Source: Pseudomonadota bacterium
GTDB lineage: Bacteria > Pseudomonadota > Gammaproteobacteria > Xanthomonadales > Xanthomonadaceae
Assembly (NCBI GenBank): GCA_020161335.1
Contig: JAIUOJ010000001.1
Coordinates: 38,809 to 102,808, forward strand
DNA: 64,000 bases
Direction of reading: 5' to 3'
Part shown: piece by piece, positions 11,186-29,173 of the stretch
Numbering within the stretch: the stretch's first letter is position 1
Layout: every line of letters begins with the position of its first letter
Translations under genes and position numbers: made by a program
Notes under the pieces: generated by a model
What the model was told of the DNA's origin: nothing
The model's database searches: none
Seen by the model: only the letters and a program-made list of their open reading frames with translations

Positions 11186-20967
<9,782 letters not shown>

Positions 20968-23138: not shown

Positions 23139-24013
23139 TCAGAATCGTTCTGTGACCGTCACGCCGGCTGGCAGATCAGGATCGATCGTGACTGTGTAAT
23201 CGGAGAAACTGCGTGCCGGGCCAGCGCTAGGGTCGTTGCCGGGGTCGTCCGTGCGCTCGACTTTGACTTTGTCGAACAGCACGTGCGCTGGTGCATTGCC
23301 CATCGGGTGTTCGTGCTTGAACACGATCAACTTGCGTGCCGACATTTCGCCACGTGCGGCAGAACGGTCATGCTCGAACAGGTTGGTCAGCGCACGCCAG
23401 AACAACTCAAGGTCTTCTTCGGAGAAGCCGGTACGTTCGGCCAGCTTGGCCGAGATGAAGCCGTGGGCACGGTAGAGGCCATATGGCAGGATGTGCTTGC
23501 GGCCCATGGTGCGTTCCTTTTCGAGATCCTTCTCGTTGGTGACGGCAACACGGGTGATCGACACTTCCATCGGAAGCACGGGTTCGACCGAACTGGCGAA
23601 GGCCATCTGCACCGGCCCGCGAACCTGACCGGTGTTGACCTCAGTGGTCATCACCGCGCCGAACGTGCGCACGTCGAAGAAGTTCTTGCACATCCAGGCC
23701 GTGAGTTCCTGCGCTTTGGCCTGATCCTTCGGCAGCTTCTTGGCTTCATGCTCGATGCCGAGCGCTTCATATGCCTGCTTGTGCTGGTTGTTCAGCACCG
23801 ATTTTTCCTGCATGTAGATCGCAAAACCGGGCTGGGCTTCCTTCTCCAGCGCCACGTAGTTGCGAATTTTGCGCTTGAGTGCGACATCGGTGACCAGGCC
23901 GCGATTGGTTTCCGGATCCAGTCGGGGCAGGTTGCCGGCATCCGGGTCGCCATTGGGGTTGCCGTTGGCGACATCGAACAGATAGACGAACTCGTAGCGG
24001 TGGGCGATCGCAC

Positions 24014-24017
<4 letters not shown>
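23139..24017 (-). CDS. cas7c: Cas7c (Csd2), 292 aa
   Basis: [55 protein letters not shown]. Confidence 0.97.
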
Positions 24018-26643
<2,626 letters not shown>

Positions 26644-26662
<19 letters not shown>

Positions 26663-26751
26663 TGTCTGCTGATTCCACCGGCAGCCACGGAAAGGATTGC
26701 CAAGACGACGACCGCCCATTTGCAGAATTGCTTGTGACCGCTGATTTCCAT
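26644..26751 (-). CDS. Putative small single-TM peptide (35 aa; in-frame ATGs at 26808 and 26880 would give 54 or 78 aa); candidate toxin
   Basis: MEISGHKQFCKWAVVVLAILSVAAGGISRHFDAIA*. Hydrophobic core; stop lies inside the degenerate repeat; no strong RBS. Confidence 0.3.
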
Positions 26752-26884
26752 CTTGAGCAGGAATCGGAAGCAGGTGTGCTGACTTCGGAAGTGTTGGGAG
26801 CTGGCCATCGGAGAGCACTCTGTGTAATGGGCACAGGTATCATTCAATCCTTTCAATGCAGATAGATGACCATAAACCATCCGT

Positions 26885-29173
26885 TTAGGTGACAAGACGT
26901 TCAGCTGCCAAAAACTGCGGGTTGTCATCCCAATGCAACCCGAATCGATCGTCATACAGCCGACGATTGACCAGCCGCACGAACTGCTCGCCGTACTTGT
27001 GCGGCGCCACTGGGGCAATGGCGTGGGCCTGCCACAACGCCTTGTAGGTCTGCTCCTGTACCTGCACCAGCCAGGGCTGGAGGCGGCGGGCGGCGCCGGC
27101 CACGCCAATCTGCTCGGCATGTTCGAGCTGGCGAAGGGTGTCGATGACCTCCGGGACTTCGTCCTGGCTGCCGGGCAGATAGGGAACGATCAGCGGACGC
27201 ATCGACGTGCGGATCACCTTGAACTTCCGCGCCAGTGTGTCCATTGGCAGGCTGTCGATACCGGCGTTGCGCAGCAGGCCGAGCAGGTCGTCACGATCCA
27301 GACGGCCGTCGCCCAGGCGGAAGTAGAGCTCGCGGAAGTAGGCCGACACGGCCTCCATCGCCAGCAGGTCATCGCGATGGGCGCGCTCGACGGTGCGGAA
27401 CACTTCGGCAAACAGCTTCAATTCCCTGGGGGGCGCCCAATCCTTGTTGGCCGGCTCGAACACCAACACCTCGCTGGTCTCGGCCGAGCGCCGTCCTTCA
27501 CGGTTGCAGCGGCCCGCGGCCTGGGCAATGGAATCCAGCCCGGCTTCGGCCCGCAGCACCAGAGGGAAATCCACATCCACGCCTGCTTCGATCAAGCTGG
27601 TGGCGACCAGGCGGCACGGCCGGCCGGCCCTCAAGTCCGCGCGCACATCGGCGAGCACAGCGCTGCGATGACGTGCGTGCATTAGGGTCGTCAGGTGGCG
27701 CGCGCCAGGCTGATCGGCAATGGCATCGAACAGATGCCGCGCATGGCGACGATTGTTGACGATGCACAGCGCCTGTTCGCCTTGCTGCAATTTTGCGGCG
27801 ATCGCTTCGTCATCAAGGGTGCCGGCGTGTCGTACGCGCACGCGACGCAACTGTTCGTAGAGGGCTGGAGGGTTGGGTGCCAGCTCGCAGACATCATCCA
27901 GGCCATCCTTGAAGCCCTGGTCGAGACGCAGCGCCGGCTGGGTGGCCGTGCACAGCACGGGACTGACCCGGTAGTTGCGTGCCAGCTCGTCCAGCAGCGC
28001 CACGCAGGGGCGCAACAGATCCTGCGGCAGGGTCTGGGCTTCATCCAGCACCACCACGCTGCCGGCAATGTTGTGCAGCTTGCGGCAACGCGAGGGACGA
28101 TCTGCAAAGAGACTTTCGAAAAACTGTACGGCCGTGGTGACAACGATGGGCGCGTCCCAGTTCTCCATCGCCAGCCTGCGCTTGGCGATGGATTGCGGTG
28201 CGGACTGCGGATCGTCGAAGAAGGCGCTGTGGTGTTCGAGCACGATGTCGTCCCGATCATCCGGGACACCCAGTGCATTGCGGAACACCTGCACGGTTTG
28301 TTCGACGATGCTGGTGAACGGGATCACGTAGATCACGCGACGCAGGCCATGGGCGAGTGCGTGATCGAGCGCGAAGGCCAGCGAGGCCAGAGTTTTGCCG
28401 CCACCGGTGGGCACGGTGAGCGAGAACAGGCCTGGACGCTCCGTTGCCTTGGATCGGACTTCTCGCAGGATGTGGGCGCGAAGCGGGTTGATGCCGCCTT
28501 CGGTGGGGAATTTGGCCAGATGCGCATCCAGGCGTTCGCCCAGTTGCGACAGCGATGGTCTGTCGCCCGTCTCCTCGCTACGTGAAGGTCGACCTTCGAT
28601 GTGCCGATAGAAATCGTCGGTGTCGGTGAAATCGGCGTCGACCAGACACGAAAAAATCATCCGTGCGAGCAGGGAGAGCTGAAACATCCGTTCCTGCGGC
28701 CTGGGGTGGCGGAGGAAGCCATCCGGCAGCGGCAGTGTCTTCGGCAGCATGATTTCCTGCGCCCACTCCGGCAGGAGGGGCGGCAGTTCGCGCGCGCAGT
28801 AGTCTTCGGACAAGCGATCGAACAGCGAGGTGCGGGACTGGTCTTCAAGGCCGGAGCGTCCGTTCGCCAATCCGGCGTGGTGCCCCGCGATGCCGTAGGC
28901 AATCAACATTCCGATGCCCGGAAAGCGGTCACGGGCGATGCGGGCGCCCCAGGTGGCGTGATCCACGCGAGTCAGATCGCCGGTGAGGCGGAGTTGGAAG
29001 CGCTCGGTGTATTTGCCCAGGTCGTGCAGTTGGCCTGCAGCCAAGGCGAGTGCTGCCCCCTTGAAGGCCGCTGCCTTTTCGGCGGCAAATGTACCGACAT
29101 CGTTCAAGTGCCTGGACAGCGGTTGCCAGTCGGATTTGTCTTTCTGCTCGGTCGAATGTGCGTAGAACCCCAT
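26885..29173 (-). CDS. cas3: Cas3 HD nuclease-helicase, 762 aa
   Basis: FYAHS, HDLGKY (HD), IAGHHAGL, SCLVDAD..DT, LTVPTGGGKTLAS, VVVLDEAQTL, ATSLIEAGVDVDF, QAAGRCNREG; RBS AAGGGAG. Confidence 0.98.
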   Translation of the reverse strand: MGFYAHSTEQKDKSDWQPLSRHLNDVGTFAAEKAAAFKGAALALAAGQLHDLGKYTERFQLRLTGDLTRVDHATWGARIARDRFPGIGMLIAYGIAGHHAGLANGRSGLEDQSRTSLFDRLSEDYCARELPPLLPEWAQEIMLPKTLPLPDGFLRHPRPQERMFQLSLLARMIFSCLVDADFTDTDDFYRHIEGRPSRSEETGDRPSLSQLGERLDAHLAKFPTEGGINPLRAHILREVRSKATERPGLFSLTVPTGGGKTLASLAFALDHALAHGLRRVIYVIPFTSIVEQTVQVFRNALGVPDDRDDIVLEHHSAFFDDPQSAPQSIAKRRLAMENWDAPIVVTTAVQFFESLFADRPSRCRKLHNIAGSVVVLDEAQTLPQDLLRPCVALLDELARNYRVSPVLCTATQPALRLDQGFKDGLDDVCELAPNPPALYEQLRRVRVRHAGTLDDEAIAAKLQQGEQALCIVNNRRHARHLFDAIADQPGARHLTTLMHARHRSAVLADVRADLRAGRPCRLVATSLIEAGVDVDFPLVLRAEAGLDSIAQAAGRCNREGRRSAETSEVLVFEPANKDWAPPRELKLFAEVFRTVERAHRDDLLAMEAVSAYFRELYFRLGDGRLDRDDLLGLLRNAGIDSLPMDTLARKFKVIRTSMRPLIVPYLPGSQDEVPEVIDTLRQLEHAEQIGVAGAARRLQPWLVQVQEQTYKALWQAHAIAPVAPHKYGEQFVRLVNRRLYDDRFGLHWDDNPQFLAAERLVT

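Follow-up and report, generated by a model that had tools for sequence, protein, structure and literature searches.

Architecture of the cas3-cas5 gap

The 64,000-nucleotide (nt) stretch of a Pseudomonadota genome analyzed here (assembly GCA_020161335.1, contig JAIUOJ010000001.1, positions 38,809 to 102,808; hereafter the window) carries on its minus strand a complete type I-C CRISPR-Cas system. The gap between its cas3 and cas5 genes holds a small open reading frame (ORF), a degenerate repeat, and a spacer-like guide, which are the subject of this study. Pfam matches and the ORF list placed cas3 at 26885..29173 (762 aa, with HD, DEAD helicase, and Cas3 C-terminal domains; stop TAA at 26887-26885), and Pfam matches identified the Cascade genes cas5c (25852-26526), cas8c/csd1 (24014-25855), and cas7 (23139-24017), all on the minus strand. 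The genes cas4, cas1, and cas2 are present too, and the CRISPR array spans 11186-20948 with ~146 repeats of the unit GTCGCGCCCATCACGGGCGCGTGGATTGAAAC. The cas3-cas5 gap measures 358 nt (26527-26884).

The small ORF occupies 26644..26808 on the minus strand and encodes a 54-aa peptide, MASSQHFRSQHTCFRFLLKMEISGHKQFCKWAVVVLAILSVAAGGISRHFDAIA, with a polar N-terminus followed by an amphipathic F-x-L-K-M-x-I segment, a basic patch, one transmembrane helix, and a short tail. A preliminary description of this gap had reported an open minus-strand frame ending with the TGA at 26646-26644 inside the degenerate repeat, possible ATGs at 26880, 26808, and 26751 for products of 78, 54, and 35 aa, a hydrophobic helix, and a weak Shine-Dalgarno (SD) signal. 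The coordinates are correct, the hydrophobic stretch KWAVVVLAILSVAAGG is present, and GAG alone stands upstream of ATG 26808; the frame stays open further upstream, into cas3 as far as 27120, which is irrelevant here. Comparison with related type I-C loci picked one of the three candidate starts, 26808. The invariant Met of the peptide family described below aligns with this ATG, and the Met at 26751 falls in a conserved Leu column and is therefore no start. No family member has an equivalent of the ATG at 26880, which is upstream of both target and promoter; the gene is accordingly the 54-aa version. The gene callers of public collections already predict exactly this product (P0006). An AlphaFold 2 (AF2) model of the peptide showed one long helix at residues 12-44, with moderate confidence (predicted local distance difference test, pLDDT, 61).

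The degenerate solitary repeat (PsiR, 26631..26662, minus strand) is identical to the array repeat at 15 of 32 positions, nearly all of them in its 3' 13 nt, and its 5' two thirds belong to the coding sequence of the small ORF. These 3' 13 nt, CGTGGTTTGAAAC (26631-26643), match the array repeat at 12 of 13 positions and are the only off-array repeat remnant in the window, as the 147 other matches all fell within the array (chance expectation 0.11). The 11-nt 5' handle, TGGTTTGAAAC (26641-26631, minus strand), agrees with the array handle TGGATTGAAAC at 10 of 11 positions, and the stop of the small ORF lies 2 nt upstream of it. The spacer-like guide (PsiS, 26589..26630, minus strand) starts with CAATGCAGATACACGAC and has its seed, CAATGCAGATA, at 26630-26620.

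The guide is followed by a 14-bp 3' hairpin, CCCCTGTCGCAGTC-CTTGC-GACTGCGGCAGGGG (26556..26588, minus strand), with a GC stem. Its folding energy is -29.4 kcal/mol vs -10.6 +/- 2.7 kcal/mol for shuffled sequences, and none of 200 shuffles was as stable. It has its counterpart in the 3' hairpin of type I-C systems with a solitary repeat unit (SRU), and a hairpin stands at the equivalent place in all homologous loci. The hairpin was rejected as an intrinsic terminator, the U tract being absent in the window and in the homologues. From the hairpin end to the cas5 ATG there are only 29 nt, and a consensus scan of 26400-27000 found no terminator-like or sigma-70-like site.

The guide target lies on the plus strand at 26851..26870, 15-34 nt past the cas3 stop, with the putative protospacer adjacent motif (PAM) TTT at 26851-26853 and the protospacer at 26854-26870. 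Guide and target match at positions 1-11, 13, and 15-17, with mismatches at 12 and 14, so that the seed is matched at 11 of 11 positions, and a CRISPR RNA (crRNA)-like RNA would pair with the minus (cas-coding) strand. No equally good TTC- or TTT-flanked match was obtained with 2000 shuffled guides, and the PAM plus seed word, with one mismatch allowed, occurs a single time in the 3.56-Mb genome, at this very target. There is no antisense arrangement: the sole match of the guide is PAM-flanked DNA upstream of the ORF, on the opposite strand. The reading of the preliminary description, an order of target, toxin, and antitoxin RNA, is supported and is refined here in two details: the PAM is TTT and not the consensus TTC, and the guide belongs to a solitary unit with a 3' hairpin, not to a two-repeat mini-array.

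The module is conserved in related type I-C loci

We compared 80 loci encoding Cas5c relatives of 70-84% identity. The cas3-cas5 spacing was 12-124 nt in most of them and 250-520 nt in 27. One module was common to 12 of the 80 loci, that of the window and L006, L007, L010, L015, L017, L018, L046, L050, L052, L065, and L066, and six further loci, reached via database homologues, had the same module. In the ~20 loci examined, the cas3 stop is followed by an opposite-strand, PAM-flanked partial protospacer and, after ~40 nt, by the ATG and small ORF, the handle, the guide, a GC hairpin, and cas5. The order of target, small ORF, and guide RNA noted in the preliminary description is therefore conserved, and the ORF, whose absence from homologous loci would have spoken against it, is present in them.

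In the 12 loci, counted from the cas3 stop, the opposite-strand target lies at 13-55 nt and the ORF ATG at 71-117 nt. The ORF has 46-62 codons, encodes one hydrophobic helix, and has its stop 3-16 nt before the handle end; the handle consensus is (G)CGTGG(A/G)TTGAAAC, and a strong GC hairpin 23-42 nt past the handle precedes the cas5 ribosome-binding site. The ORF of the window matches this family, with 54 codons, a PAM-to-ATG distance of 42 nt (33-63 nt in the family), and a stop 13 nt before the handle end.

Two further loci bear on how the module is built. L091 (5001-5604 of the locus; CP015249.1) has the whole module, including a TTC-flanked target, the peptide gene, the repeat handle, the guide, and the hairpin, upstream of an intact cas3-cas5-cas8 operon. 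A relic cas3 HD fragment precedes the module, suggesting either a relocation of the module or a replacement of the cas genes downstream of it. In L097 (1662-1752), a family member, a second repeat has stayed almost intact (GTCGCGCCCTTCGCGGGCGCGTGGATT) and serves as the 3' hairpin, with a third repeat-like hairpin after it. As judged from this sequence, the 3' hairpins of solitary units derive from repeat stems.

The small-ORF family is under purifying selection

The peptide family was defined (alignment A2) by a length of 46-58 aa, one helix, and a gene that ends at a repeat handle in a type I-C locus. Its members share invariant Met, Trp, and Val residues. The N-terminal part of the family pattern consists of a polar acidic N-terminus, (D/S)(F/Y)-x-L-K-L-x-L, and a basic patch; the C-terminal part consists of the (L/W)PW-x-V-V helix, G-S-(S/P), and an amphipathic R-L-I-E-K-L-L tail. 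The peptide of the window keeps the invariant M1, W31, and V33, the latter two being the Trp and Val of the helix.

In DNA-only pairwise alignments of eight pairs, mismatches at codon positions 1, 2, and 3 numbered 207:128:270, and all gaps were multiples of three. Protein-guided alignments of the family ORFs gave proportions of nonsynonymous differences (pN) of 0.31-0.44 vs saturated proportions of synonymous differences (pS) of 0.62-0.82. These alignments clearly indicate that the small-ORF family is under protein-coding, purifying selection. The reservation of the preliminary description that the ORF might be spurious is dismissed at the family level by the codon-position and gap-length evidence, and its other suggestion, that the toxin might be an RNA, loses ground: with selection acting on the amino-acid sequence, a toxin made of RNA only is unlikely.

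A profile search of 5.8 billion proteins retrieved 19 family members, all unnamed and without Pfam domains and including P0006 of the window, and a full hidden Markov model (HMM) search of 1.84 billion representatives retrieved 32. On the contigs of the 11 database members that were looked up, type I-C cas genes adjoin the peptide gene in every case; the gene stands in the cas3-cas5d gap in nine cases, next to cas3 at the end of a contig in one, and upstream of cas3 in one. As its members are rare and all those looked up adjoin type I-C cas genes, the family is real, small, and tied to type I-C. Searches of the peptide family against Pfam, PADLOC, PHROGs, and PDB sequences gave nothing meaningful, and no description of it was found in the literature searched, a search that was not exhaustive. 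Within narrower genome sets, a DNA search with the cas3-cas5 gap in 60 related genomes and a profile search in 400 genomes of the class each matched the source genome alone.

The membership of the window's own peptide was assessed with a profile of 46 homologues from which this peptide had been left out. It scored 12.8 bits over the expected segment (E 0.002), and of the stop-to-stop frames of the window, 1001 in total, none gave a better single-stretch match; the p value per frame is ~2e-6. Taken at the family level, the small ORF is very likely a real protein gene, and the window fairly likely holds an intact, functional copy of it.

Guide-target pairing and the putative promoter region

Fifteen guide-target pairs of the module were compared position by position. 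Positions 1-5 and 7-11 were mismatched in 8 of 150 cells, that is, 95% matched, and position 6 was mismatched in 9 of 15 pairs and position 12 in 14 of 15, where an unconstrained position is expected to mismatch in 75% of cases at random; since the targets had been ranked on positions 1-5 and 7-11, a Fisher test is partly circular and these rates are descriptive. The PAM was TTC in 12 pairs, TTT in two (the window included), and CTC in one. By these sequences, the mismatch pattern is the 5+1 periodicity of type I Cascade pairing, and mismatches at positions 6 and 12 have likewise been noted for type I-C SRUs (bioRxiv 10.1101/2024.12.27.630466).

A PAM-anchored comparison placed the target of the homologues between or beside recognizable promoter boxes. 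In L006, the target lies between the boxes of TTGTAA-N17-TAGTAT; L017 has TTGTCA-N18-TATGGT, and in L015 and L065 the -35 box stands immediately past the PAM. The corresponding candidate -10 box of the window is AATGAT (26839..26844, minus strand), 6 nt after the PAM. As this best box matches the consensus at 4 of 6 positions and is combined with a poor -35, we infer the window's promoter from the homologous loci.

A putative CRISPR-repressed toxin module

We favor, with moderate confidence, the reading that the gap is a CRISPR-repressed toxin-antitoxin-like module that follows the logic of CreTA and CrePA on the architecture of the type I-C SRU. A weak promoter just past the cas3 stop would give a single transcript that contains the 54-aa peptide gene and then the crRNA-like RNA and runs on into cas5-cas8-cas7. 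The crRNA-like RNA (handle 26641-26631, guide from 26630, hairpin 26588-26556) would be matured and bound by Cas5c/Cascade, and the 17-nt partial match at 26851-26870 would park Cascade on the promoter region, the pairing being too short to license Cas3. The parked Cascade would repress the local promoter and block read-through from cas3, and the repression would cover the peptide, the guide, and, as negative feedback, the Cascade genes. Upon loss or blockage of Cascade, for example by an anti-CRISPR, derepression would let the peptide accumulate, and the accumulated single-pass membrane peptide would most likely damage the membrane and halt growth.

The steps of this circuit are not equally firm. 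Cascade-guided repression of the small ORF is likely, and the transcription start and the Cas5c processing of the guide RNA are predicted steps. Harm by the derepressed peptide is, by analogy, somewhat probable, and its single helix flanked by basic residues, as in type I toxins, suggests damage to the membrane, or its depolarization, as the mode of action.

The position of the stop codon raises a further possibility. Cas5c is predicted to cut at the 5' edge of the handle, and in every locus the stop of the peptide gene is no more than ~12 nt away from this cut; the distance is at most 8 nt in all loci but L091 (12 nt upstream). About half of the family, L017 and a Delftia version among them, has its stop as a TGA inside the handle, with proteins ending in G-V-G or G-V-D, and the others, the window included, have it 2-12 nt upstream of the cut. 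Maturation of the guide RNA might thus act as a second, post-transcriptional antitoxin step that truncates the toxin mRNA at or before its stop, an idea that we regard as doubtful. With a stop inside the handle, the Cas5c cut would yield a stop-less toxin mRNA, a substrate for tagging and decay by transfer-messenger RNA (tmRNA); in the window, it would leave UGA plus 2 nt at the 3' end of the mRNA. Since the guide is made from the toxin-encoding transcript only, the cut would give a guide without toxin where Cas5c/Cascade is active, and the intact toxin mRNA would be translated where Cascade is blocked or missing. The overlap of the ORF end with the guide processing site is a testable link from crRNA maturation to toxin translation.

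Several observations weigh against a functional toxin module in the window. Toxicity is predicted solely from analogy and the shape of the peptide. With ~20% identity and no C-terminal R-L-I-E-K-L-L motif, the peptide is the most divergent member of its family and could come from a copy in decay; the window-like metagenome contigs are 100% identical and offer no within-lineage variation for a selection test. The SD before ATG 26808 is weak, the consensus scan gave no sigma-70-like promoter, and the -35 is poor. The putative PAM is TTT instead of TTC or TTA, although L015 has TTT as well. The distance from handle to hairpin, 42 nt, is the longest in the family. Lastly, no convincing hairpin stands directly 5' of the handle: the fold upstream of it has -3.5 kcal/mol in the window, compared with -4.8 to -8.3 kcal/mol in the homologues and -14.7 kcal/mol for a true repeat, and Cas5c is reported to cut 3' of a hairpin that precedes the handle (bioRxiv 10.1101/2024.12.27.630466).

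Decayed copies and other cargo in the cas3-cas5 slot

Two of the related loci show damage to the module. The 197-nt cas3-cas5 gap of L002 (a Pseudomonas sp. metagenome-assembled genome) is a decayed relative of the window's module. It lacks the handle and most of the ORF region and has a mutated seed; the hairpin and part of the guide are recognizably homologous. In L007 (Solimonas soli DSM 21787), comparison with the intact P0042 showed that a one-base frameshift disrupts the peptide gene near codon 4, and guide, target, and hairpin are kept; the frameshift reflects either toxin inactivation or an assembly error. Judged by sequence, both decay patterns would fit a toxin/antitoxin pair.

The slot holds other cargo elsewhere. 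In L004 (3400-4000), L023, L036, L041, L042, L044, and L045, a same-strand, TTC- or TTT-flanked partial target directly past the cas3 stop is followed by a TTGACA-type promoter, a GC hairpin, a strong SD, and a mini-ORF of 9-10 codons rich in rare codons (AGA AGA, AGG AGA, TTA TTA, AGA ATA, and ACA ACA), and the module ends with a degenerate repeat, guide, and hairpin. These modules look like the tRNA-sequestering CreT RNA toxins, which in the literature searched are reported for type I-B and I-F only. L047 has a target and repeat unit as in these loci, and no mini-ORF was found in its gap. Pfam matches (E 4e-23 and 6e-14) identified a pair of HicA toxin and HicB antitoxin genes in the 842-nt gap of L049 (Kushneria aurantia), which also contains another ORF, of 79 aa and hydrophobic at one end; the solitary repeat handle GGATTGAAAC lies downstream. 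The CreT-like and HicAB occupants fit the notion of a slot for Cascade-guarded toxic cargo.

Other ORFs were also observed in the gap. Six loci, L011, L024 (3660-4004), L029, L031, L035, and L077, share a 114-aa ORF there that contains the motif Y-P-N-G-K-I-Y-V-G; it had no Pfam match, and no repeat unit was seen in these loci. The 823-nt gap of L003 (Luteimonas sp. TWI596), which has the closest Cas3 relative of the window, holds an ORF that matches DUF4160 and another that resembles DUF2442 more weakly (E 1.8e-4, narrowly missing the Pfam cut-off), and a repeat handle was not detected in this gap.

Alternative explanations

It is conceivable, though unlikely, that the main role of the guide is a CreR-like autoregulation of the Cascade operon and that the peptide is a harmless co-transcribed leader or accessory membrane protein. 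Self-regulation in type I-C and other CreR-type self-regulation have been described (10.1101/2023.03.10.532045), and the module of L091 sits upstream of cas3-cas5-cas8 like an operon leader. Moreover, as no promoter or terminator was found between the target and cas5, and the hairpin ends so close to the cas5 ATG, cas5-cas8-cas7 would lack a separate promoter; a block of transcription at 26851-26870, by repression or as a roadblock, must then lower Cascade expression as well, and the guide probably autoregulates Cascade too. However, most related type I-C loci have a short gap without a guide, and autoregulation therefore needs no 160 nt of conserved coding sequence. The purifying selection on the peptide and the CreT-like and HicAB cargo found in the slot elsewhere likewise argue against mere autoregulation, and L002, where ORF and guide were lost together, resembles a paired module in decay. 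Autoregulation and a repressed toxin are compatible and do not exclude each other.

The peptide could also be a small abortive-infection or defense effector under CRISPR supervision, cargo of the 'CRISIS' type that serves phage defense over Cascade addiction. Nezha, Gabija, and eight CRISIS systems, which include membrane proteins, occupy this slot with the same solitary-repeat architecture. This explanation is nevertheless quite improbable, as no PADLOC model matched, the 54-aa single-helix peptide has no evident sensor, and the cargos described in bioRxiv 10.1101/2024.12.27.630466 are much larger. It overlaps mechanistically with the CRISPR-repressed toxin that we favor, and both predict harm on derepression.

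That the ORF of the window is a decayed or untranslated relic, with the guide RNA alone (or nothing) still functional, would suit the divergence, weak SD, TTT PAM, poor promoter match, and long guide-to-hairpin distance listed above, as well as the existence of a clearly decayed relative (L002), but is very improbable given a frame intact at the exact family length of 54 aa, a PAM-to-ATG distance within the family range, the retained helix Trp and Val, a perfect seed match, and the use of TTT by L015 too.

Significance

CRISPR-repressed toxins explain the resistance of CRISPR-Cas to loss and the punishment of invaders that carry anti-CRISPRs. In the literature searched, such toxins are so far known from type I-B and I-F, as RNA toxins and one KilA-N protein, and the supervised cargo of type I-C consists so far of large defense systems only. 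If the favored reading is true, a membrane peptide resembling type I toxins would act as a Cascade-guarded toxin in type I-C, in a compact (~330 nt), portable kill-switch part, and a family left unnamed by standard annotation would be added. The type I-C cas3-cas5 gap would then be a slot in which guarded cargo of at least three kinds is swapped: peptide, CreT-like RNA, and HicAB.

Comparison with known systems

The closest known architecture is that of the type I-C SRU (bioRxiv 10.1101/2024.12.27.630466), in which cargo lies between cas3 and cas5c and is directly followed by the SRU. The SRU yields a 48-50-nt crRNA-like RNA with an 11-nt 5' handle and its 3' end in a hairpin, and this RNA represses the cargo promoter 5- to 60-fold via a partial, TTC- or TTA-flanked match. 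The cargos reported are Nezha, Gabija, and eight 'CRISIS' systems, including Longwang with two transmembrane (2TM) and Guanyin with three transmembrane (3TM) segments; a ~54-aa one-helix peptide is not mentioned among them. The window shares with these systems the subtype, the slot, and the single repeat-like sequence with an 11-nt handle, guide, and 3' hairpin just before cas5c, as well as a partial match of ~16 nt to a site just ahead of the cargo that is flanked by a PAM (a putative one in the window), where positions 6 and 12 tolerate mismatches. It differs in that the cargo is a single 54-aa one-helix peptide and not a multi-domain defense system, the protospacer is on the opposite strand with a gene-proximal PAM, TTT, and no hairpin is evident 5' of the handle. 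The ORF also runs into the repeat remnant, unlike in the SRU loci, a feature that is not described for known systems.

CrePA of Acinetobacter baylyi, a type I-F system, consists of the CreP protein toxin and the CreA RNA in the cas3-csy1 gap (bioRxiv 10.1101/2024.01.05.574328). Like the module proposed for the window, it is a protein gene inside a cas operon, and its promoter is repressed by the effector complex with a degenerate-repeat RNA through partial complementarity. However, CreP derives from a phage, is of the KilA-N type, and blocks cell division, whereas the type I-C product of the window is a membrane peptide, and creA has two repeat-like sequences, whereas the unit of the window is solitary.

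The addiction logic proposed here is that of CreTA, known from Haloarcula hispanica's type I-B system and from other I-B and I-F modules (Li et al. 2021; PMC8501985; PMC9458426), in which a Cascade-bound crRNA-like antitoxin represses the toxin promoter through a partial, PAM-flanked match without cleavage. Type I-C was not treated by Shmakov et al. The CreTA toxins are small RNAs with mini-ORFs that sequester rare tRNAs, whereas the family of the window is selected on its protein sequence; CreT-like elements occur in the same type I-C slot of sister loci and not in the window. In its ~50 aa and single transmembrane helix flanked by basic residues, the peptide is similar to the type I toxins Hok, TisB, Ldr, and Fst, with which it has no sequence similarity. 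The antitoxin of a type I toxin-antitoxin system is an antisense RNA on the toxin mRNA, whereas the guide RNA of the window would act on promoter DNA via Cascade.

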